Shown here piece by piece: positions 3,207 to 27,740 of a DNA stretch of 32,000 bases. The DNA comes from Candidatus Saccharimonadota bacterium (GTDB lineage: Bacteria; Patescibacteriota; Gracilibacteria; BD1-5; UBA2023). Position 1 is the first letter of the stretch. Every line of letters starts with the position of its first letter. The DNA lies in contig OY970170.1 in the NCBI GenBank assembly GCA_963706795.1, forward strand, positions 720,001 through 752,000, given 5' to 3'. A program made the translations under genes and the position numbers. The notes below the pieces were generated by a model. The model did not search any database. It was not told where the DNA came from and was given only the letters and a program-made list of their open reading frames with translations.

Positions 3207-3236
3207 AGGCTATAAATTGCAATTTATAGCCTTTTT
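3207..3236 (+). terminator. terminator-like perfect hairpin with no obvious upstream gene
   Basis: aggctataaatt-gc-aatttatagcct is a 12-bp perfect palindrome followed by TTTTT. It lies just upstream of the next CDS. It could be a second terminator or a 5' regulatory hairpin. Confidence 0.45.
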
Positions 3237-4071: not shown

Positions 4072-4104
4072 GAGATCTGGAATATATATTCCAGATCTCT
4101 TTTA
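4072..4104 (+). terminator. rho-independent terminator
   Basis: gagatctgg-aatatatatt-ccagatctc hairpin followed by TTTT. Confidence 0.8.
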
Positions 4105-5208: not shown

Positions 5209-5225
5209 GAGTTATGCATTTAACA

Positions 5226-5256
5226 AAATAAGCAGACTACGTAGTCTGCTTATTTT
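5226..5256. terminator. bidirectional terminator between convergent genes
   Basis: aaaataagcagac-tacgta-gtctgcttatttt, with A/T runs on both sides. Confidence 0.8.
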
Positions 5257-5280
5257 GTTGTCATAATTTTCTTTGTTTAT

Positions 5281-6685: not shown

Positions 6686-6706
6686 TAATTATATAATCTC
6701 ACTACT

Positions 6707-13294: not shown

Positions 13295-13460
13295 AATTCG
13301 CAGAATAAAAAAATTTTGTCTTCAAAAATTAATAAATAATTAATAATTATGGATATTGTAGGTTGGTAAGGGTCGAGCTTTCAAGGAGGAAGCTCGACCC
13401 TTGCTTTGTGTCTGCACAGCATTCGTGCCAGTCTATACATATTTCTTCTCCTTTTTCTTC

Positions 13461-16400
13461 ATGAATTCACTTCGCAAGAAAGTATGTGCCATCTGGATGA
13501 TCGCACTCATAGTATCATCCCATCTCAGTATTGTAGAGGCCTCGAGTGGCCTGACTGACTTGGATAATTCGATCAACTCAAATCAATGAAATATAGAATC
13601 AAAGAAATGAATGGAGGAAGGAAGTGGAGGGATGCTCTCATGAGCTACTTTTACCGGAAACCTCTTGCCGGTATTAGCTCCTGAAAGTATTAACCTCGCT
13701 CCGGAGTCTCTTAAAATAGATACACCAACAATATTTACTGGGGCTACTGCCACAGGAACATCATTGTCTGGTGCAAGTCTCAAAGACGCCCCAGCCATCG
13801 ACTACAGTACCTATAAATATTACTCAGGATCATTTCTCTATAACGGTATAAGCTATGGGAATGGACTCTATTCCGATGATCTAGGGCTTCCACAATCGAA
13901 TATCCCAAATGTTCAAATTTATAGTTATAACGATTATCAAAAACTCAACACACCAAAAACCAAGACATTAAGTGCAAAGACATTCTCAACTCAGTCAACT
14001 CAGGGTGCTCAAGTATTTTCTATATCTTCGACAGGCCTTATTGGAAAGTGGGACTTAAATGGTAGTCCGGCTGATAGTAGTGGAAATGGAAATAATGCTG
14101 TAGCGAGCAATATGACATGGCCTAACGATTCTTCACTTACCGTGCAGAATAGTGTCGGAAATTTTAATGGCACAAATAGTTATTTAGATGCAGGTGATCC
14201 TTACGTATCAGGTGGAAGTTACATCATTTCTGGTTGGATCAAATCAACTGTTCCAGCAACTTCGGGTGATTACAATATCATCTATCGATATTCAGACTCT
14301 GCTGGTTATGACACGAGTCGAGTGTATTTTGGAGGATACGGCACCAATGCTCTCTATTGGAAGTTTATCACCGGTAATAATGCCGACGCAAATAATACCT
14401 TTGTTATCAGCAAAACATTTAACTCAAATCAGTGGTATCATGTTATCTTTGAGCTCGATAATGTAGACAAGAAAGCGCGATTTTATCTTGATGGTTCCCT
14501 CTATGCTCAGCAAGCATTCACGGGTGAAGTTTCAAAATCAAATCTTTCAGGACCACATAAGCTGTATTTCTGAAATCGATGGTACAATTCACAAAATGAA
14601 GGATGGAGTGGTAAAATGGCGCTTTTACGTTTTTTTAAGCGAGAGAAACTCTCGTCTTCTGAGGTGCAATCTCTCTATTCTGAAGGACTCTCGGCTCCTC
14701 CGACTCCATCCACCTCGGTGCCCTCTAGTATGTACCCCGCACCCTACCTCAGTGCTTACGCATGATCAACCTCCCAAATCGTAAACCGCAATAGTTTCCT
14801 CATTGGTGGTATGACGCTTGGATCGGACTCACTTATTGATCAACATTGGTCACTTTGAAACGACAAACATGGTGCAAAAAATGCGAGTGATGATGCAGCT
14901 GATCCTGTAAATCTCTCGAATGGTGAATTTACCTACGACAATACATTCGCGCATATTCCTGGCGTAAAAATCCCGTATGATTTTTCGCTCACTTATCGCA
15001 ATCAGTTGACCTACGATGGGCCGGTGGGGAATAGCTTCGATCACAATTATAATATCTTCCTCGCCGAAAATGCAGGGGATGGATCGGTGAGCTTGTATAA
15101 TGGGAAGCTCGGGATATTTAATTTTGCAGCTTCGGGATCGACATTTGCATATAGCCCTGGACTGAAGGCGAATCTGACAAAGAACGCGGGGCTGTACACG
15201 CTGACTTTTGATGATGGGATGGTGTATTCTTTTGGAACCAATCTCAAAATCTCAAAGCTTGCAGATCGCTATGCGAACGCACTCAATTTTGCTTATAACA
15301 CAGATAAGCAACTCACGACCGTGACGGATACGCTTGGTCGCGTGATTACGTATGCGTACAACGCAAATGCACGACTCTCGAGTGTAACAGACTTCAATGG
15401 AAGGGCGGTAAATCTCGCGTATTACGCAGCAGGTGATGCGGGTGGATCGGCGAATGATCTCAAGTCGGTGACGATTGCTGTTGGTGCGAGTACAAAGACT
15501 ATCTCATTTAGCTATACAGGATCGCACAATCTCCAAAATCTCATTGATGCGAAGGGGCAGACATATGTTACCAATACCTATGACACCAACAATCGCGTCC
15601 TCAGTCAGGTCTATGGATCAGGTACGACGAGCTATATATATGCGCTTACCGGCTCGATTGTAGCGACAAATACGGTAACTAATGCCAATGGTACTCAGAC
15701 GAAATATACTTTTGATGCCAATGGGAATACCACAAAGCGTGAGATTAATGATCTCACTGGTACAGGTGTAACGGTCTACAATTACGTATTTGATGCCAAT
15801 GCGCGTCTTATCAAGACGATTCTGCCTCGTGGGAATGGCAGCACATACAAATATGACAGCCGTGGTAATGTGATTGAGAAGCGTGAAAAAACCGATGCAA
15901 ATGCGGTAGATGGATCGTCTGATCTTGTGACGAACTATGTCTATGATGGCGTGTTTGATGTGCCTACGAGCATGACGCTCCCAAATGGATTTCAGAAGAG
16001 TTTTGTACTCGATGGAACAGGGAATATTCTCCAAGAAAGTGCTACGGGTATCATCAATCCCGATGCTACGACCTACAACACGACGACCGTTTACGAATAC
16101 AACCCTCAGGGCCTTCTTGCTAAAAAAACTGATGCTGAGGGGAATCAAACGACCTATGCGTATGGTTCTGGTCAGGTTATTACGGTGACGCATGGGACGG
16201 GCAGTATTGCTTCTACCGAATCTCTGAGTTATGACGCCTATGCGAATATCCTCACGAGTACTAATGGAGAAGGGAAAACTACCACATTTACCGTGACACC
16301 ATTTAATCTCACGGCGAGTGGTAAAACTACCGAAGGTATCGAAACTCGTTTTATCTATGATGCCAATAACAACAAAACCCGCCAAGAGACCTACACCCAA

Positions 16401-19400
16401 AGTGGAGGAATTGTCGGAGTGATCACATACGAATACGATATCCTCGATCGTCTCGCTAAAAAAACCACGCAGGTAGATGCGACAACATCGCTCGTAACCG
16501 TCATGACTTACGACCCAAATGGCAATATTCTCACAAACAAAGAAGGTTCCGGCGCGACTATCAAATATACCTACGACGCCATGAATCGCGCTACCGAAAA
16601 GCGCATTGTCATGGACCCAAATAATGCTTCGCTCGATATCGTGACAAGCTTTGTATATGACCGTAATGGTAATCAGATAAGAGTGACCGATCCGCTTGGC
16701 AATCAGACGATTTCTAATTTTGATCTCTTCGATCGCCCAATTAAAAAGACCGATCCGACTAGTACATACGCAACCTATTCATATGACAAAATAGGGAATG
16801 TTACTGAGGTTGATGCGTATAGCACAGGCAATACGCTGCTTCAAAAGACGACTTCGCTCTATGACGGACTCGGGCAAAAAATCCAGACGACTGCTTTTGA
16901 TCTCACAAATGCAACGCCCGTAAATATCGTCACAAGCCTCAAGTACGACAAAAATGGACATCCCAAAGAATCCACCGATGCCAAAGGCAACAAAACAACC
17001 ACGACATATGACAGTCTCGGGCGACCATCTCAGATTACAGATGCACTTGGTAACAAAACGACCAGTGCCTACGACAAGCGCAATCTCGTCATCTCAAAGA
17101 GCATCGTCCCAAATACGGGTACAGGTGTCATCACAACCACTTCGCTCTATGACAATGACGGCCGCCTCACTCAAGAGACCAATAATCTTGGGAAGACAAA
17201 AGCCCTGAGCTATAACGCTCTCGGACAGGTAATCAGCGCAAAAGACGAAGAAAATAACATCACCAACTACGCCCGCAATTTTATCGGGAAGCCCACTACA
17301 GAGACTAAATATCTCTCTGGAGGAACGACTGTAGTCACGGGTTACAGTTATGACGAACGTGGCAATCTCACATTGATCACGGACGCAAAAAACAATGCGA
17401 CAGCCTATCAATATGACGCACTCAATCGCACAACCAAAGTCACCTATCCAGACAGCAAAATCCTCGTATCTGTCTATGACAAAAATTCCAATCTCACGAG
17501 CCAAACTGATCCAAATGGGACGGTCGTAGCAAATGTCTATGATCCTCGCAATCTCCTGACCACTAAGACTATCACTACAGGAACGGGGGTCATCGGTATC
17601 ACTTCCGAGGCCTACAGTTATGACGCACTTGGCCGACTCATCTCCGGCAATGACAGCAATCTGAGTAAGCTCGATTTTTCCTATGATAGCCAAGGAAGGC
17701 TCTTGTCTGAGACCAACTCTGGTACAGTGGTCGGGTACAATTATGATGCCAATAACAATCTCACGAAGCTCATCTATCCTGATCTCCGAGAACAGGTCTA
17801 TGGCTACGACGCTCTCAATCGTGCGACAAATATCACCTACAGCGGAGGTACGATTGCCACATATAGCTACAGCGGTATTGTAAATACCGGCATCACCTAC
17901 GGCAATGGAAAAACTGTCGCTCAGACCTTCGATGGGGTATTAAGGCTTCAGTCGCTAAATAATGGGATAAATTCGTATACCTACAGCTATGATGGCGTCT
18001 GAAATATCCTCGCCGACGGACAAAAGAACTACGCCTACGACACCCTCTATCGCCTCACTAATGCGAGCAGCGCACAGAGTGGAACAACCCTCGAATCCTT
18101 TAATTATGACAAAGCCGGCAATCGCACGAGCGATCTTGGGAATGCCTACACGAGCAATGCACTGAACCAATATTTGTCACTCTCAGGAGCCACGAATGTC
18201 GTCTACATCTACGATAATAACGGCAATATCACCGACAACGGCCGATATACATTCCAATACGACTACAAAAACCGTCTCCTCAAAGTAAATTCTGGCAGCA
18301 CCAACATCGACGAATTTACCTACGACATCCTCGGTCGCCGTATCACCAAAAAATCTGGCAACGAAACGACCAAATACGTATTCGCCGACAAAAATATCCT
18401 CACCGAAGCCCGCACCCAAAGTGGCTCAACCACCTTCCACAAAACCTACATCAACGGCCTCGGTACCGACAATCTCCTCGCCTATGACAACGAGGAAGTC
18501 AATCTCTCTCCAAGCGACAAGGAAGAACTCGGTTTCTGCAACACGAATGTTCTCTCTGCAACTGGGAGCTTCATCAAGTATGGCTACCAAAATATCGTAG
18601 ATCGATGTAATACACTCGGTAACTCAGGTTCAACCATCGTCACTAATCGATACTTCTTCCACAAGAATCATCTTGGAAGTGTTGTAGGGCTTACGAATAA
18701 CACATGAGTTCTCGTAGCAGAGTACCAATACGATACCTTCGGAAATCCTTCAGTACGAACATGAACTGGAGTATTCACCAAGGTTACACAAACATCACAG
18801 CTTTCATATGACAATACTCGATTCTTCACTGGGCGAGAATATGACAAAGAAATCGGACTCTATTACCTAAGAGCGAGATTTTATGATCCAACAACTGGAA
18901 GATTCATATCTAGAGATCCTATAGGTCAGAATGATCAGGTGAATCTGTATACGTATGTTGGGAATAATCCGTTAGGGTTTGTGGATTTGATGGGGATGAG
19001 TAGCAAACCGGCTGCTCTTACAGATAAAGAAAGATTTGAAAAGATTTCACAATTCATGCAGAGTAAAACATTTAGAAATTCTCTTTATAAAGAAGGCAAT
19101 ACTCAATCAATAGATTATTTGTGGGTATATTCGTTGCAAATTTCTAATTGAAATGTTCGTGATGCTTTTTCAACTATAAACAGTGCTGTCAGAGGTGTTC
19201 CACAGTATGATGAAGATGAAGTTGCTCAAAGTATTCGCAATTGAGTTATCCCTACTGGTTTAACATGAAAATATGAAGGTGGCGAATATGGCAATAAAGA
19301 TAAACTTCAACATTTCTTTAAGGCAGCTCAAATTTCCTATGTATTATCTGTATCGAATGATGTTGATATAGGGGGTGCAACAGTTGAAATTCTCTGACAA

Positions 19401-19568
19401 GGTAAAGAGATATTTCTAGATGAAATTCCGTATGCTTTCCATATTAAGGATGAGTGATATGATGCAAAGGATATAGACGCGAATAGAACTGGTGCCCAAT
19501 TCGGAAGATATCTAAAGAGGTATGAGAATTCAAGTGGTAATGTTTTACCCTCTTCTATTATTAAATAA
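13461..19568 (+). CDS. RHS/YD-repeat polymorphic toxin, WapA-like (signal peptide, LamG, YD repeats, RHS core, C-terminal toxin CT1)
   Basis: Track ORFs 13401-, 13665-, 15006-, 18174- and 18939- all lie in frame 0 and fuse through 14 TGAs with no TAA/TAG, giving 2035 aa. Signal: MNSLRKKVCAIWMIALIVSSHLSIVEA. Dozens of YD repeats (YxYDxxGNxxxxxD). Core end: RFFTGREYDKEIGLYYLRARFYDPTTGRFISRDPIGQNDQVNLYTYVGNNPLGFVDLMGM. Stop is TAA 19566. Confidence 0.92.
14034..14687 (+). other. LamG / concanavalin-A-like lectin domain of the RHS protein
   Basis: GKWDLNGSPADSSGNGNNAV...FNGTNSYLDAG...ISGWIKS...NQWYHVIFELD...ARFYLDGSLY...GKMALLRFFKREKLSSSEVQSLY matches the LamG_3 pattern. Confidence 0.75.
18641..18998 (+). 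repeat. RHS core 3' homology block, copy A (in the full-length gene)
   Basis: cactaatcgatacttcttccacaagaatcatcttggaagtgttgtagggcttacgaataacacatgagttctcgtagc... recurs at 20040. The first ~75 nt have only a few mismatches; the remainder is clearly homologous but more diverged. Confidence 0.9.
18999..19565 (+). other. CT1: variable C-terminal toxin domain of the full-length RHS protein (function unknown)
   Basis: Begins immediately after the ...VDLMGM core boundary, where similarity to the two downstream cassettes stops abruptly. 189 aa, with 5 in-frame TGAs. Confidence 0.7.
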
Positions 19569-19577
19569 GATGATCTT

Positions 19578-20036
19578 ATGTATAAAAAGTGGCTTGTTGC
19601 AGTTTTAGTTGTGTGGATTTTATTATCTCTTTTGTCGATGATAAATAGCAAATATTTTGTCAGCGATGTCCAGCACACAGAAAGTGTAAATATACTAAAT
19701 AAATCGACAGCAAATATTCAGATTAAGACACCACAGAGCTCCTCCTTTTTATATCCAGGAGAAAAGAGTGCTTTTCAAGTGGATATAAAAAAGTCTATTC
19801 AAGAAAGAATGTTTCAGATTCTAAATAGCAGTGGAGCTGTTATTTTCAGCTATCGGGACTTTGTCAGGCCTGCTAATGATAACGTGACTTGATATGAGGA
19901 GGCTCTAAAGGGAATTTATACCACAGGAAGTCTTTCTGTCCATACAACAGTGAGTCATAAAACAGACGCATACTACTTTCCGTTTTATATACTTAACGAG
20001 ATTATGGAACATGCGATCCATATTGATGTTAATTAA
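19578..20036 (+). CDS. putative immunity protein 1 (N-terminal membrane anchor)
   Basis: Starts 9 nt after the RHS stop. MYKKWLVAVLVVWILLSLLSMI forms a TM helix. One TGA (19890) is read through to TAA 20034. The assignment rests on its position immediately downstream of the toxin tip. Confidence 0.6.
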
Positions 20037-20868
20037 TATCACTAATCGATACTTCTTCCACAAGAATCATCTTGGAAGTGTTGTAGGGCTTACGAATAAC
20101 ACATGAGTTCTCGTAGCGGAGTACCAATACGATACCTTTGGAAATCCCTCTGCTAGATCAGGAAGCGGAGCATTCACAAAGATTACTTCAACTACTTCGA
20201 CACTCTACGACAATACTCGACTCTTCACTGGGCGAGAATATGACAAAGAACTCTCACTCTACTACCTAAGAGCGAGATTCTATGATCCAACAACTGGAAG
20301 ATTCATCTCACGAGATCCGATTGGGCAAAATGACCAGATTAATCTCTATGTATATGTCGGTAATAATCCGATGAGATTTGTGGATTTGATGGGGATGAAG
20401 ACAAAAATAGTCGCGACAATCACAATTTATTCCAGCAATGGATGAGCCTCAAGCGATTGAGATATTAGTGCTTGACATAGTTGGATTGAAATCACAAACA
20501 AGAGTACCAATATAACAATCACTTACTGACTATGGCCTAATAGATGATGAGAGGATGAGCCGAAATGGAAGGCTAAGCCTATCTTTAATGGTATTCAGAC
20601 TAATGGTCCAGAAAAATCGTATACTGAAAATGACTACAAACAAGCCGCATCTTTAACAATGTCACTAAACAAAGATCAATTAAAAGCAGTGAGAAGCAGT
20701 ATAGCAGATCAAATTGTTGACTGAAAGACCTGGGGTAACTTTGCACCTTGCTCAGACTTTGCATCGAATGTATGGAATTCTGTATCTAACAATACACTAG
20801 AAGATAGAAACGATTTTGGTCTAAGTAATCCGACTACTTTATTGAATTCTATTAACTCTTATAAGTAA
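20026..20868 (+). CDS. orphan RHS C-terminal cassette 1 (core fragment + toxin CT2)
   Basis: Homology to 18641-18998 starts at 20040. The frame is open back to ATG 20026, overlapping the immunity-1 stop. Peptide: (M)LINITNRYFFHKNHLGSVVGLTNNT[G]VLVAEYQYD...NNPMRFVDLMGM, followed by an unrelated 156-aa tip with 7 TGAs. Stop is TAA 20866. Confidence 0.8.
20040..20397 (+). repeat. RHS core 3' homology block, copy B
   Basis: Collinear with 18641-18998 and the same length (358 nt). Confidence 0.9.
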
Positions 20869-20873
20869 TTAAT

Positions 20874-21248
20874 ATGAAAAAATTCCTCACTATTCTGCTG
20901 GTAGCAATAGCATTATGATTAGTTATTTTCATATATGCTAAATATTTCTGGAAAGGCTCTTATATCCAAAATGGATGACAGAATATAAGAGTGCAATTAC
21001 GCTCTAGTGATGTAGAGTTTACTGTATCACCTATATCTTCTGCAAACTGAATAACTGCCATAGATACAAGATTAGATATCTCTAAGCGTAAAATTTATGT
21101 ATGGTATTATGCCAAATTTGTCAGTTTATTGAGTGGGCAAGGAGATTGAGGTAATACTCACATAAATATACCTGGAGAATATACTGTTATTTATTTAAAT
21201 CCTGATGGCACGGAACAGTTCATACAGACTATTTCTATAGAAAAATAG
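20874..21248 (+). CDS. putative immunity protein 2 (N-terminal membrane anchor)
   Basis: ATG sits 5 nt after the CT2 stop. MKKFLTILLVAIAL[G]LVIFIYAKYFW forms a TM helix. 124 aa, 4 in-frame TGAs, TAG stop at 21246. Confidence 0.6.
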
Positions 21249-21251
21249 TCA

Positions 21252-22079
21252 GATCCCTCTGTAAGATCAGGCACTGGAACATTCACAAAGATTACTCCAA
21301 CTACTTCGCCACTCTACGACAACAGTCGACTCTTTACTGGACGAGAATATGACAAAGAAATCGGACTCTACTACCTAAGAGCGAGATTCTATGATCCAAC
21401 AACTGGTCGATTTATATCACGAGATCCGATTGGGCAAAATGACCAGATTAATCTCTATGTCTATGTTGGGAATAATCCGTTAGGGTTTGTGGATTTGATG
21501 GGAAGAGAAAGTAAACCAGTGGTGCAGGTTTTTAGTAATGCAAAGAATGATATAAGTAAATTTCATGAAAACTTAGCACTACTAAGATCTAATACTAGCT
21601 GAAAGATGCAGACGATATTGGATAAACTATATCTTCCTTACAATGTAGACGAACCAAGTTCAAGGCCACTTGTTTATGCATATTATTTTAATTTAGAATA
21701 TCATGGCACAGTGCGCGGTGTTACTGGTGAGGGAAAGTATGATTTAGCACTTGGACAAAATGGCTGAGTGAATGCTATGTCATCTTATACGGCTGACGAT
21801 ATGTTTAATATACGTTGAACAAAAATTCCAGTAGCACAAGTTTCCAATGTTCTGACGGCTTTGAATGCATACCGCTTAGGTATTTCTGAAGATGAGCTTA
21901 AGACTGGTGCTATGGCAACGGTAGTTGCTTGAGGAGGGAATGGTATAAAATGAGAGATAAAAGACCATATTCTTTATGATGCAGGATATCAACTCGGTGA
22001 ACTTGAGAGATCGGGTGTATTAACAGATGAGATTCTTCTTCAGAAGCTTATTGATGCATCTCAAAAACGAGGTGACTAA
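21252..22079 (+). CDS. orphan RHS C-terminal cassette 2 (shorter core fragment + toxin CT3), no start codon at its 5' boundary
   Basis: Homology (atccctct..agatcagg...) starts at 21253, matching 20144 and 18745. It is in frame with immunity 2, directly after that gene's TAG. Peptide: ...FTGREYDKEIGLYYLRARFYDPTTGRFISRDPIGQNDQINLYVYVGNNPLGFVDLMG, then a unique 191-aa tip with 5 TGAs. The first in-frame GTG/TTG/ATG are at 21489-21498. Stop is TAA 22077. Confidence 0.75.
21253..21503 (+). repeat. RHS core 3' homology block, copy C (5'-truncated)
   Basis: Collinear with 18745-18995 and 20144-20394. Confidence 0.9.
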
Positions 22080-22105: not shown

Positions 22106-22639
22106 ATGAAACTTATCTATATCCTATTTGCGCTTGTTTCTGTATTTGGATACTTCTTGTATTTCAATGACGACTACAGCTTTGAGAAAAATAAGAAGCA
22201 AATTATAAATGATAGCGTTATAAGAATAGCAAGTGCACACGCTGAAATTGATATTCACTGAGATCAATTTCAGAAGGCTTTATTATTGCTACATAAGAAT
22301 TCAGTGAGTTTTTTAAGTTTTACAGGTACGGGTGCTATCGAGTATCAAGCAAATGATAATATGTATTCATTAGGCCAAGGACCTTTGACGAAGGATGAAA
22401 TATCCTCAATACAAGATTTGTATTCTCAGGCTCACATTGATCAAATCTATAGCAGAGATAACTTGGATACTTATTTCATAAAAGCACCTAAATTAGAAAT
22501 TTCTTTTGTATACTCGATTAAAGAAAGAAATTTCTATCCTACAGAAAAGGTAGGATACTGATTTATTATTGATGAGTATAAAAATTGGTGAATCCTGCAA
22601 TCATGTACTCGTAATACATGTCAAGAATGACAAAAATAG
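22106..22639 (+). CDS. putative immunity protein 3 (N-terminal membrane anchor)
   Basis: MKLIYILFALVSVFGYFLYF forms a TM helix. Track ORF 22286-22561 is extended in both directions through 4 TGAs. 177 aa, TAG stop at 22637. Confidence 0.6.
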
Positions 22640-22663: not shown

Positions 22664-23902
22664 ATGAAAAAACAGAATTTCCTCATTGCAGGATCCTCCC
22701 TTTTTCTTCTCTTCTGAGTATTTATTTCCAGTCCTCTTATATCCAACATTGTCCATGCGGAAGATACTCCAGTGACAACAGTTACTGCGGGTGGTATTCG
22801 TGTGCCAAATATACCAAAAGATCGCACAAAAAAGGGGCCCATGGTCATGGATTTTATATCTTTGCTTAAAGCAGGGAAATATACGGAGGGGCTTGCAGTA
22901 TATAGGGAGGCTATCAAAATAGCAGATCACCCAGAATTCCTCACGGGTGAAATGTTTATTGATAAAAAGATTGTTACACGACTGGCGAGTCTGAACAAGA
23001 AGCTAGAAGTTGCTAAAACAGCTACTAGCAAGAGCAATCTGCTCATTTTGCAAGGAAATGCTCGTTACGATGCATGAAACTATCTCTACTATCGTGACAG
23101 ACAAAAATATAGCTTGGTGGTACTCTATCAGTACCTGCTTGCAGTGGAGGCATTTGATAAATCCATCCTTATTACTGATAACTCTATAGCTCACAGGCAG
23201 AAATGAATCGTTATGAATGATCTTGGTTGATCAGAGGATCTGGCTATATCAGAGCTACAAAAAGCAATCGCAATGGATCCTTCAGACGACCGTGCCTTTT
23301 ATAGATTAGGGAATCTCTATTGAAAAAAGAAACAGTATGATCTTGCTATCTCATCCTATCTAAAATCTTTGTCTATTAATGGAAGTAATGAGCTTTCCTA
23401 TCTAAATCTTTGAGCTGCTTACAGTAATGCTTGAGAGGATGCTAAAGCTTATCAAGCCTATAATGATATGCTGAAGATATGTAAAGGCTATTGCCATGTT
23501 GCGGAATATAATATTTGAAGTCAGAAAATGTTTGAAGAAAAATACGATGAAGCTATCGAGTATATTGATCTTGCAATTAAACATGCAGCAGATAAGTGAG
23601 TAGTTTATAGGAATGCTTACCTTTTAAAGTGAACTATGTTTCAACTTCACTTTCGACCTCAAGAAGCATTAACAAATCTCAAAATGGCCGTGAATGATCC
23701 GAAGGAAATAAATACTGATGATAATAATCATAGTATATGTGATTATCCGGCTAGAGTGCATGCAAGAATTGCAGCAGCATATTTTGATCTTGGTGATCTT
23801 GAAAATTCTAAAAAGGAAATGAATATCAGTATCTCTATGGAGTCAGACGATCCGGAAACCAAACACATCATTGAGGTATGGAAGTCAAAAATGGGGCAAT
23901 AA
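22664..23902 (+). CDS. secreted TPR-repeat protein
   Basis: MKKQNFLIAGSSLFLLF[G]VFISSPLISNIVHA is a signal peptide. Track ORFs 22772-23077 and 23636-23902 join through 10 TGAs. TPR-like units: AFYRLGNLY[G]KKKQYDLAISSYLKSL and YLNL[G]AAYSNA[G]EDAKAYQAY. Confidence 0.75.
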
Positions 23903-23973: not shown

Positions 23974-24417
23974 ATGCGTATTCTCAAGAAGATATTTGTA
24001 TGGATTGTATGTCTTTGTTGTGGGTTATATGCGCTTATGACAGCGGATCTATTTTTCGGAGGTAAACTTTGAATGATCTATACATGATTATATTTGCTAC
24101 AATTGAGTGAGCGGCACTACGTAAATAGAATGTCTTCAGAGTATGAAGAGTACTTTAGGAAGTATATCCGTGGGGTCACCATTTCTGAATGGAAACTCTC
24201 TGATTTCCCTCGTGATGGTGAAATACAAATCTCAAGTTTCACTGCATCATGATCGAACTTAATACTTGTTTGAGGCAATCGCTTCTTACTTCTACATACC
24301 AAAGATGCTCACATTCTAAATGATGTAATAGATTTATCTTTTGTTACTAGGGTTTTAGATTCAAATTGGTTTGTTCTTGCTCCCTGCACGCGACTTTTTT
24401 GTCAGCTCGAGAAGTAG
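23974..24417 (+). CDS. small membrane-anchored protein (immunity-like architecture)
   Basis: Invisible in the standard-code track. ATG 23974 to TAG 24415 is open with 4 TGAs. MRILKKIFVWIVCLCCGLYALM forms a TM helix, followed by a ~115-aa domain. Confidence 0.55.
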
Positions 24418-24470: not shown

Positions 24471-24938
24471 ATGCAAAAACATATTTTATCGATCTTCTTG
24501 CCTATCGCTTGAGCGTTCATTCTTGTCCTAGCTGTTTTTGGTTATTTAGGCTGGTTTCCTGTATATAGTAACTTTGTCGGTAATACACAACAGTACAATG
24601 ATTTAGTAAGACTTATCCATGCTACTAATACAAAGGAATTTATATACGCTAATAAACCAGGATTTTGCGAGGATTGAAATTGTGATAAATGAACAATTGA
24701 TAAGATATTGTCTGCAATGGATAATCTCAAAATCGAGAGTATTGATAGTCGAGAAAAGGATACATACTGAATTATCTTTTATCTCAAAAAGGGTTGGTGG
24801 ACAAACAATCCTGCAATTTACCGATATAAAAAGGATAATTTTGGAGATACTGATGTTCATTGATGAGATGCAAAGAGAGCATGAACCGAAATTATTGAAA
24901 AGTATAACAATAGCTGGGTGCAACTAGATTGGCGTTAA
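24471..24938 (+). CDS. small membrane-anchored protein (immunity-like architecture)
   Basis: ATG 24471 to TAA 24936 is open with 7 TGAs, including a TGA-TGA pair. MQKHILSIFLPIA[G]AFILVLAVFGYLGWF forms a TM helix. Confidence 0.55.
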
Positions 24939-25456: not shown

Positions 25457-26164
25457 ATGGAAGTAACAGATCGAAATGTATGCCAGACTCTCAGGGATAC
25501 GTATGGACTTCGTAGTCTCCCACCTGATGTGGTACAGGTGTATCTAGAGAAACATCAATATGATGGCTTCAGTCAAAATGTACAAGCACGTCACAAAGCG
25601 ATATGGTGGTCGTTGTTCATTGTATTGAATCTCGCTGCGATCGTTCAGAGCTATATATTCGGTACGAGCATCAGTGGTTGGTTCAACATAATGACTTTGA
25701 TTGTTTCGTTCGCAAATATGTATCTCGTTGCTAATCTTCTTCGGATTATCTTTGGCGTTCACAGCTTTCATAAGGAGATGGAAGCTGCACAAGATACATC
25801 GAAGGTGATCGCGAAGTATTCAAATGAAGAGAAAGGATATGACTTGTTACGTCTCTCGTTTGAGTATCAGTGGGTATGTTACGAAGATCTCTCAAACTTC
25901 ACCATTGTTACTCTGCGCTGTCGGATCATATTTTGTATCATCCTGCTTTTAATGGGGTATGTAGAACATACTGTAATTCTCGTATTCTTGTTTGTAATAA
26001 CCGGCTTTGGCCAATGGTATGCGCAAACCAAAATTCATTCATACCTCTCGGCTCTGGCTCATTTCTATAATGACCCAACGAAGTGATACATACTGGTTGT
26101 TTCGCAAATATTTCCCTCTTTGGCGCCAGAATTTTGGCGTCTTTTTTGTGCTTCAAAATATTAA
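25457..26164 (+). CDS. 4-TM paralog family protein, copy 1 (function unknown)
   Basis: GGAGGTGTATC-ATG context. No internal TGA. N-terminal motif LRDTYGL and C-terminal motif QTKIHSYLSAL are shared with copies 2 and 3. The standard-code ORF ends at TGA 26084-26086. Under code 25 the first stop is TAA 26162, beyond the terminator. Confidence 0.65.
26122..26147 (+). terminator. terminator of unit 1
   Basis: ggcgcca-gaattt-tggcgtc hairpin followed by T6. Confidence 0.8.
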
Positions 26165-26203: not shown

Positions 26204-26271
26204 CCGACGCAGTCTTCCAGGCAATGCACTGGATCACATACATCAAATCATACAAATACAGGAGGTGTATT

Positions 26272-26988
26272 ATGGAAAATCTTCCAGAAGATGTACCGCG
26301 GATGTTGCGTGAGAGGTATGGCAAATACTTCCCATTATCGGAAGAAATGGTCGTGGCTTATGAAAATAGACGAGGGACGAACGAGCTCATTTTAACAACG
26401 TTGCTGTGGGTAATGATTCTGCTCGTTGGTGTGCCAATTATGTTCGCATATTGGCAGTCACATGATCAGAATTTTGCTCGATTTCTTGCTATTCTGGCCG
26501 TAGTCTCGGTCATTCCATATGTGAGAGCTATCACTCTCATGGAGGGAATCAGGGAGGATGTAGAGTTATTCAACAATACGATTGCGGGTATTGATGAAAA
26601 AGAGCGTGCTCGGATGATTCAGAGTCACTTTATTGAATCAACTACGCCTGAATTACTCGAAGGTTGCTTCAAATTTGAGTGGATCAAGTATTCAAGCCCG
26701 CTTCTCTATGTTCGTCTAGCGCTTCAGTTGCTGTTCTGCATTATTCTTGCAACAGTACAGCAATGGGAATTTAGCATATTCCTCATAGCAGCGCTTGCTC
26801 TGCATGCCTATTACAAAATAGAAGCGCAGGGGCAAATTCATAAATATTTACAAAACCTACTCGACTTCAAGAACCATCCGATGCATGAGTGGTACTGAAT
26901 GTTGGGGGTATCGCATTGGGGGCACCGAGAAATCGGTGCCTTTTTTATGACTCACTCATGCGGTTGACATATATTTTCCACTTCGTAA
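26272..26988 (+). CDS. 4-TM paralog family protein, copy 2 (function unknown)
   Basis: AGGAGGTGTATT-ATG context. No internal TGA. Motifs LRERYGK and QGQIHKYLQNL. The standard-code ORF ends at TGA 26896-26898. Under code 25 the first stop is the TAA inside the -10 box of unit 3 (26986). Confidence 0.65.
26921..26946 (+). terminator. terminator of unit 2
   Basis: ggcaccga-GAAA-tcggtgcc, a perfect 8-bp stem with a GNRA loop, followed by T6. Confidence 0.85.
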
Positions 26989-26991
26989 ACT
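26964..26991 (+). promoter_or_regulatory. promoter of paralog unit 3 (TTGACA-N16-TAAACT)
   Basis: TTGACA at 26964-26969 and TAAACT at 26986-26991. Confidence 0.7.
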
Positions 26992-27068
26992 CTGATCAGT
27001 TTTCCGATTCGGTTGAGCTGGATTACCAAATCTGATTCATATCAAAACACAGAGAATGGAGGTATATC

Positions 27069-27683
27069 ATGTACAGCAAGCAAAACATTAATTCGTGTTT
27101 AGCTCATACGTATGGTCTGCAGGAACCATTGTCACCAGGTCTTATTGCTACATATAACAAAAAAGTCGTGGGCATTCCTGAGCTGGCATCATTTGCCTTT
27201 TGGCTTGTCTTGGGAATGGTGAGTGCCTCCTGTATCATCTTTTATGTTGATATAAAAGATCTCATGATTGGCTTTGGAGTCGTTGTTATTATCCTTAATG
27301 CTCATCCCATAAGGAGTATCCGTTGTACAACATCCGAGATCCATAGTCTTGCTATGCAGATGAGCGGTACTGAAGGTGAGCTGAGATCTCGCATACTCGA
27401 ACGACATCTCGATCAATCGAATGCTCAGTATTTGCTTGAGAGATGTTTTAGATATCAACATCTCTGTATTTGGCCAAAATTAGCGCTGTTGCGCTATGCA
27501 TGCTGTGCAATCTTTTACGGGGCGCTTCTATTCCAGGGGCAATACTGGCTCGCTGTTGGAGTGATTGCATCAGGCTTAGTAAGCATGTACCAAATAAGCA
27601 AAGCACAAGAGTACATTCAGTGGTACTTGCTGCAACTTATGGAAAAGGCGGGCGTGAAGTTTTTGATTATATGGCAAGTGTAA
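27069..27683 (+). CDS. 4-TM paralog family protein, copy 3 (function unknown)
   Basis: TGGAGGTATATC-ATG context. 204 aa, no internal TGA. Motifs LAHTYGL and KAQEYIQWYLLQL. It ends in a genuine TAA upstream of its terminator. Confidence 0.75.
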   Translation: MYSKQNINSCLAHTYGLQEPLSPGLIATYNKKVVGIPELASFAFWLVLGMVSASCIIFYVDIKDLMIGFGVVVIILNAHPIRSIRCTTSEIHSLAMQMSGTEGELRSRILERHLDQSNAQYLLERCFRYQHLCIWPKLALLRYACCAIFYGALLFQGQYWLAVGVIASGLVSMYQISKAQEYIQWYLLQLMEKAGVKFLIIWQV

Positions 27684-27706: not shown

Positions 27707-27732
27707 GGCACCGAGAAATCGGTGTCTTTTTT
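27707..27732 (+). terminator. terminator of unit 3
   Basis: ggcaccga-GAAA-tcggtgtc followed by T6. 18 nt are identical to the unit 2 terminator. Confidence 0.85.
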
Positions 27733-27740
27733 ATGGCGTA

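Follow-up and report, generated by a model that had tools for sequence, protein, structure and literature searches.

Orphan toxin-tip cassettes behind an Rhs gene of a TGA-recoded Gracilibacteria genome: probable displaced C termini with their putative immunity genes

A 32,000-nucleotide (nt) stretch of contig OY970170.1 (assembly GCA_963706795.1, positions 720,001 to 752,000) carries a full-length Rhs/YD-repeat toxin gene followed by two truncated copies of its 3′ end, each joined to a different tip and each trailed by a small gene. We refer to the whole stretch as the window and count coordinates from its first letter. The arrangement raises the question of what the two truncated copies, hereafter orphan cassettes 1 and 2, are for, and whether they are expressed at all. 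A first-pass annotation had singled out their junctions, reporting that cassette 1 keeps a start codon of its own and that cassette 2 sits in frame behind a TAG stop codon. We consider it probable that the array is a set of classical orphan rhs-CT/rhsI modules created by C-terminal displacement, with orphans that are silent as they stand and that could be reloaded into the main gene; this is the best explanation for the locus as a whole. Gracilibacteria, the group to which the host almost certainly belongs, are ultra-small bacteria believed to be episymbionts or predators.

The array is legible only under an altered genetic code. With translation table 11, the region is a patchwork of short open reading frames (ORFs); 8 TGA codons interrupt cassette 1, 5 interrupt cassette 2, and neither cassette appears in the ORF list. 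Reading TGA as sense lifts the summed length of the window's ORFs (those of 150 amino acids, aa, or more) from 6.6k to 16.9k aa and brings out a 2068-codon frame at 13362–19568, with a tight row of ORFs behind it. Alignments point to glycine as the encoded residue. In that of cassette 1, TGA falls in columns where homologues from standard-code lineages have an invariant glycine (NNT[TGA]V and [TGA]HSW), and the same columns show tryptophan in Gracilibacteria matches that databases translated with code 4. The hydrolase elbow encoded by the ORF at 3–995 reads GFSQ-TGA-G, that is, GxSxG, and the main gene has TGA at sites where both cassettes use GGA or GGC. A tRNA scan found no tRNA gene in the window, and an Rfam scan of it was also empty. 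UGA has been reported to specify glycine in the Gracilibacteria clade (PMC8080830), and the nearest relatives of the window are all metagenome-assembled genomes of Candidatus Gracilibacteria. Judged from these sequence comparisons, TGA is a sense codon across the whole window and encodes glycine rather than tryptophan (code 25). All protein analyses were based on table-25 translations. The cassette frames exist only because TGA is a sense codon, a dependence that the first-pass annotation had left unstated; what it observed is confirmed, and its interpretation holds in part.

The main gene (13461–19568; this and all other features of the array lie on the + strand) contains 14 in-frame TGA codons and encodes 2035 aa. 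The product begins with a signal-like hydrophobic segment followed by LamG (a weak match), and also matches RHS_repeat (PF05593; nine stretches, E = 3e-84) and the plug domain DUF6531 (E = 9e-11). The Rhs-associated core TIGR03696 (E = 7e-24 in the main gene; 84 bits, cut-off 32.5) is present in both cassettes as well. In the main gene the core ends in NNPLGFVDLMG, an instance of the general form NNP(L/M)(G/R)FVDLMG, which is a variant of PxxxxDPxGL. Directly behind it lies the tip that is now loaded, CT-A (18996–19568; 190 aa, 34% GC, 29% of its glycine codons being TGA). No PAAR, VgrG or chaperone gene was found within the 32-kb window, and the gene was not classed as an effector of a type VI secretion system (T6SS). 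We read its product as an Rhs/YD-repeat polymorphic toxin that is probably exported by the Sec route.

The end of the core (18640–18999, with VDLMG at 18981–18995) is repeated before both orphan tips. Cassette 1 (20026–20868) comprises a core stub at 20039–20394 and the tip CT-B at 20395–20865; cassette 2 (21249–22079) comprises a stub at 21253–21503 and the tip CT-C at 21504–22076. Self-blastn aligned 18640–18999 with 20039–20398 (85.7% identity over 364 columns, E = 1e-114), 18745–18994 with 21253–21502 (81.6% over 250, E = 1e-65) and the two stubs with each other (20144–20393 and 21253–21502, 89.6%). A repeat search recovered the same collinear blocks, which are far beyond chance. The claim of the first-pass annotation that the two modules are cut at different depths was borne out, the stubs being 360 nt long in cassette 1 and 250 nt in cassette 2. 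The V-D-L-M-G motif is encoded by GTG GAT TTG ATG GG in all three copies (18981–18995, 20380–20394 and 21489–21503), and its codons include three possible in-frame starts right at the boundary between core and toxin.

Each tip is followed, after 5–26 nt, by a small ORF of 124–177 aa. Putative immunity gene 1 (19578–20036; 152 aa, a single N-terminal transmembrane or signal segment) starts 9 nt past the main-gene stop. Putative immunity gene 2 (20874–21248; 124 aa, an N-terminal transmembrane segment) starts 5 nt past the cassette 1 stop and ends in TAG (21246–21248), and putative immunity gene 3 (22106–22639; 177 aa, again with an N-terminal transmembrane segment) closes the array. All three proteins have a single N-terminal hydrophobic segment; the cassettes have none. 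Past VDLMG, the tips CT-A, CT-B (157 aa) and CT-C (191 aa) show no similarity to one another. Composition separates these parts from the rest of the gene: GC content is 45.5% in the core against 31–37% in the tips and immunity genes, and TGA accounts for 5% of glycine codons in the Rhs N terminus and core against 20–58% in the tips and immunity genes. CT-B belongs to a domain family with a His...Cys arrangement (conserved GHSW and CSxFA) that occurs at Rhs C termini in several lineages. Our guess would be a permuted papain-like peptidase, in which the histidine precedes the cysteine; the sole hint of this is a weak Lnb_N match (E = 0.005) in a possibly related tip from another Gracilibacteria contig (L004, introduced below). 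The immunity 1 protein would presumably neutralise CT-A, and membrane anchoring of the immunity proteins implies that the toxins would act outside the cytoplasm.

Two further small ORFs (23974–24417 and 24471–24938), each with a single N-terminal hydrophobic segment, lie 3′ of a TPR gene (22664–23902). A C-terminal NW-L--CTR--CQ motif is common to the first of them and immunity 3 (pairwise E = 7e-4), and both ORFs may represent orphan immunity genes that have no toxin fragment beside them.

Can the cassettes be translated where they stand? As the first-pass annotation had stated, with correct coordinates, each homology block begins a few nucleotides past the preceding immunity stop: 2 nt in the first case (stop 20034–20036, homology from 20038/20039) and 4 nt in the second (stop 21246–21248, homology from 21252/21253). 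Cassette 1 belongs to a frame that stays open between 19909 and 20868 and includes ATG 20011, TTG 20023 and ATG 20026, the two ATGs lying 23 and 8 nt before the immunity 1 stop. Translation from ATG 20026 would give the 280-aa protein, overlapping immunity 1 by 11 nt, that had been described; the extension of the frame to 19909 and the earlier ATG had been missed. The description of that protein as leaderless uses the wrong term, since the ATG is internal to a probable polycistronic transcript and no + strand terminator above background lies within the array. Promoter and terminator scans of the region gave results at or below shuffle expectation, and the two + strand terminator candidates in the array fall within immunity genes 2 and 3, with none between genes. 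The array is likely to be co-transcribed. Cassette 2 lies in the frame of immunity 2, straight after its TAG, and it does lack a start at its 5′ boundary: there is no ATG, GTG or TTG before 21489, and its first starts (GTG 21489, TTG 21495 and ATG 21498) are codons of the conserved V-D-L-M-G motif itself.

The same series, in which a main gene and its immunity gene are followed by an orphan with another immunity gene, recurs in at least nine further Gracilibacteria contigs (among them L001–L003, L004, L005, L007, L009 and L010). In L004 (GCA_041660685.1) the main gene is followed by three orphan fragments, and in L007 (GCA_028691535.1) a main gene with an M15-peptidase tip is followed by two orphans. 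We surveyed 17 junctions from these arrays, including the two in the window. Between 8 and 370 aa of stub are retained ahead of the core motif. In most cases the stub begins no more than ~45 nt from the stop before it (−14 to +160 nt where the junction is well defined), and in L004 an immunity stop lies inside stub-derived sequence; a cassette boundary placed exactly at the immunity stop was rejected on this basis. The tight abutment in the window matches the packing of its genes (gaps of 5–26 nt) and looks as if deletion had gone as far as the immunity gene allows. Stub length falls along the array in the window, L004 and L007, but a rule to that effect was rejected, L001 showing the opposite.

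An in-frame ATG near the boundary was found at 7 of the 17 junctions (~40%, about chance), only GTG or TTG at 4, and no start of any kind at 6. The orphan shares the frame of the preceding gene in 6 of 17 cases, which is the 1-in-3 expectation. The private ATG of cassette 1 and the in-frame TAG before cassette 2 are therefore unremarkable. Stop read-through, which the first-pass annotation had offered as one route to expression of cassette 2, was rejected together with recoding: the placement behind TAG is what chance provides, and TAG is an ordinary stop that ends several ordinary genes in the window. One likeness between junctions deserves mention by itself. At 6698–6714 of L004 the ATG of the first orphan lies exactly 8 nt before the immunity stop (ATGTTGAATAA, compared with ATGTTAATTAA at 20026–20036 of the window). 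In L004 both the ATG and the stop fall within stub-derived sequence, and the resemblance is probably a coincidence.

These frequencies bear on the possibility that cassette 1 is translated into a free-standing protein with a function of its own, as might be the CT portions of the two cassettes. Translation would start at ATG 20026 or 20011, where ribosomes finishing immunity 1 would reinitiate by coupling, or else at the VDLMG codons. Two in-frame ATGs do lie close to the immunity 1 stop, the L004 orphan repeats the 11-nt overlap geometry, and NCBI annotation calls such orphans coding sequences. Real genes in the window share the lack of a Shine-Dalgarno sequence with the orphans; most have none, so a missing ribosome-binding site says nothing for or against translation. 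However, the probability of at least one ATG among the 43 open codons 5′ of the cassette 1 stub is ~0.68. An ATG at chance expectation is no evidence of expression, and the survey of relatives points the same way. The product would have neither a signal peptide nor an Rhs shell, whereas the anchored immunity proteins imply an extracytoplasmic target, so that a cytoplasmic stub–CT-B protein has no obvious role. Cassette 2 with its stub could not be made in this way at all. We regard free-standing expression as quite unlikely. As free-standing frames the orphans are most likely silent: they lack an export signal, cassette 2 has no start at its 5′ boundary, and the ATGs of cassette 1 would be fortuitous. 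The immunity genes, in contrast, have their own ATGs and would probably be co-transcribed and translated, which would widen the immunity of the cell.

Silence of the orphan tips raises the further possibility that they are inert debris, that is, CT pseudogenes due for deletion that never return to the main gene while selection acts on the immunity genes only. Short, diverged stubs (78–86% identity) would be expected of debris, the CT-less ORFs at 23974–24417 and 24471–24938 resemble arrays stripped to their immunity genes, and one related orphan (L004, 8910–9962/9884–10870) is split by a frameshift. That split, which may instead be a sequencing error, produces overlapping frames within the core stub, and it is the sole disruption seen in the survey: the CT frames are intact at all 17 junctions and uniform in length, at ~180–260 aa past the core motif. 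In the window, both remain open for 157 and 191 codons despite AT-rich DNA in which TAA and TAG make up 3.8% of trinucleotides. The mosaic identity of the stubs, described below, also means that they took part in recombination. On balance, we consider the debris explanation unlikely.

The recurrence in other assemblies also bears on whether the array could have arisen during assembly, by the joining of tips that co-existing strains carry as alternatives. The sequence is probably metagenomic, and repeats of 250–360 nt can mislead assemblers. Nevertheless, the junctions between immunity stop and stub are unique sequences that must be in the reads, the three stubs are unlike in both length and sequence, and the same architecture appears independently in at least nine contigs of other assemblies. 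An artefact is extremely improbable.

The core ends themselves record how the array may have formed. Across a conserved 186-nt part of the three copies, synonymous divergence (dS) is 0.42–0.67 and the ratio of nonsynonymous to synonymous divergence (dN/dS) is ~0.1. The low ratio indicates that the copies diverged within working genes; had a local duplicate simply decayed where it stood, the pattern would be different. The drop in GC content from the core to the tips and immunity genes also speaks for displacement. Identity is unevenly distributed. A 109-nt sub-block (18640–18748) matches 20039–20147 with 2 mismatches (dS 0.09), whereas beyond it the main gene and cassette 1 differ at 53 of 251 positions (dS 0.56; Fisher p = 2.7e-7, and still p = 3e-4 without a variable loop). 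The cassette 2 stub begins at the position that corresponds to the 3′ edge of the sub-block. Within the 250 nt common to all three copies, the two cassettes usually agree against the main gene, yet six consecutive informative sites at 18959–18977 join the main gene with cassette 2 against this majority. The sub-block is a recombination or duplication footprint, and the mosaic as a whole was left by crossovers or gene conversion between the copies, either during the insertion events or later. In the proposed mechanism, an imported, foreign segment consisting of core end, CT and immunity gene would have entered the 3′ end of the gene by recombination and displaced the resident tip. The downstream cassettes would be earlier tips, CT-B and CT-C, with their immunity genes, each of which would have retained a core stub (360 and 250 nt) when it was displaced. 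The order of these events is an inference.

Could the displaced tips return? RecA-type homologous recombination through the stubs would fuse the main gene to CT-B or CT-C and change the toxin that is deployed. Three in-frame fusions are possible: main::CT-B (a 1399-nt deletion), main::CT-C (2508 nt) and cassette 1::CT-C (1109 nt). Uninterrupted identity extends over at most 79 nt between the main gene and cassette 1, 41 nt between the main gene and cassette 2, and 44 nt between the cassettes. In Salmonella, 522 bp at 95% identity have been shown experimentally to recombine (PMC3967940). The proposal in the first-pass annotation that the blocks are substrates for tip switching is plausible and has footprints to its credit; the blocks are long enough but diverged. 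Homology is enough in principle and far less favourable than in Salmonella. Just as in the Salmonella system, a simple deletion would also remove immunity 1, so a prior duplication may be needed (PMC3150448, PMC3967940).

Several points weigh against displacement and reloading. Outside the 109-nt block, identity of 78–86% would make recombination inefficient. An exact look-up of the AspRS encoded in the window gave no record, scans of genome contigs for close strains returned only 3 distant Gracilibacteria loci (~40% identity), and a scan of metagenome contigs with the core end and the three CTs as query returned one distant locus only; no close strain or population data were found in them, and thus no recombinant junction was observed. 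In an all-against-all blastn, 10 related loci had only the ~180-nt core end in common (70–78% identity) and no cassette. The toxin and immunity roles are assigned from position and architecture and are putative. Homologue searches for CT-A and CT-C gave nothing, no CT or immunity protein had a Pfam match (permissive scans for the CTs) or a match to a PDB sequence, and the structure model of one homologue, P0017, was unreliable (a predicted local distance difference test score, pLDDT, of 51) and was not used for a fold search. Finally, some translation from ATG 20011 or 20026, or from the GTG, TTG and ATG encoded by VDLMG, may occur. With these points taken into account, C-terminal displacement into silent orphans still seems to us the probable history of the array, and actual tip switching may also take place.

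A bolder extension would make each unit of stub, CT and immunity gene in Gracilibacteria an integrase-free cassette: stub–stub recombination would excise a circle, and a single crossover would reinsert it. This would explain why an immunity stop lies 2–4 nt from the next stub, why a near-identical 109-nt duplication marks the 5′ edge of the cassette 1 stub, and why adjacent copies are more alike than distant ones in the window and in L007. An excised circle could enter any Rhs gene through the conserved core end (~180 nt), and the pool of cassettes would be private to code-25 organisms because 25–58% of the glycine codons in the tips are TGA. We think this extension rather unlikely.

Some features of the related arrays and of the remaining window may be recorded here. 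The main Rhs gene of L007 (1–6856) has a Peptidase_M15_4/VanY-like tip that would target the cell wall, which fits an extracytoplasmic action of these toxins. A tip family with a HANSN-like motif and a C-terminal ...NTF(N/S)(Y/P) recurs in L001, L002, L003, L004, L007 and L009, paired with small immunity-like proteins that apparently have several hydrophobic segments. In the window, genes for a CAP/DPBB protein and a Beta_propel protein lie 5′ of the Rhs gene, and a strong hairpin with an 18-bp stem, probably a terminator, is found at 13365–13405, just 5′ of the Rhs start. Perfect intergenic palindromes of 26, 28 and 38 nt at 3207–3232, 4072–4099 and 5222–5259 are probably also terminators. 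Further downstream, three tandem paralogous membrane-protein ORFs (25457–26164, 26224–26988 and 26958–27683) share similar N-terminal motifs, and a 29-nt direct repeat occurs at 26921–26949 and 27707–27735.

How does the array compare with known systems? Orphans without initiation signals, and their reloading by homologous recombination, have been described and experimentally shown (PMC3150448, PMC3967940). The closest comparison is with the enterobacterial orphan rhs-CT/rhsI modules (Salmonella Typhimurium LT2 STM0291/STM0292, Dickeya dadantii rhsC and Yersinia pseudotuberculosis; PMC3967940, PMC3150448). There, as here, CT fragments with a piece of core stand in the same orientation behind a full-length gene, each with an immunity gene; export signals are missing from the fragments, which in the known systems usually lack initiation signals too, as cassette 2 does and cassette 1 may; the common core piece would serve as the substrate that reloads the main gene; and the core is richer in GC than the tips. 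There are also differences. The window offers no T6SS context, and export is probably Sec-dependent. The core-end motif is VDLMG here and DPxGL there, and the homology amounts to 360 nt at 86% and 250 nt at 82%, compared with 522 bp at 95% in Salmonella. The host here uses code 25, with TGA-Gly-rich tips and immunity proteins that are predicted to be membrane-anchored.

The WapA-type toxins of monoderm bacteria have a domain architecture that includes cell-wall-binding repeats. We detected no such repeats here and found LamG and DUF6531 instead. Otherwise the main gene resembles WapA (Bacillus subtilis WapA/WapI and Streptococcus suis WapA; PMC12704120) in its signal peptide, its YD/RHS repeats, its polymorphic C-terminal toxin with a downstream immunity gene, and the absence of a T6SS. 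The orphan cdiA-CT/cdiI arrays of contact-dependent growth inhibition (CDI) in E. coli EC93 and EC869 (PMC3150448) likewise consist of tandem displaced modules directly behind an immunity gene, in which the toxin fragments keep the demarcating motif but lack start codons and the immunity genes are expressible. CDI differs in its use of CdiA/CdiB two-partner secretion and the VENN motif, and it has no RHS repeats.

Enterobacterial Rhs and CDI loci already show this layout, in which nothing but the lineage is out of the ordinary here; it calls for no new mechanism. The novelty lies in the host lineage with its genetic code, in a Sec-type context, in the VDLMG variant and in the three uncharacterised tips, two of them without a detectable homologue and each with a putative immunity partner that appears to be membrane-anchored. 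No paper describing Rhs arrays in Gracilibacteria came up in full-text literature searches. TGA-recoded Gracilibacteria appear to carry Sec-type Rhs toxins with arrays of displaced tips and a recombination handle of the kind found in Proteobacteria, which would extend a known mechanism of toxin diversification to the candidate phyla radiation.

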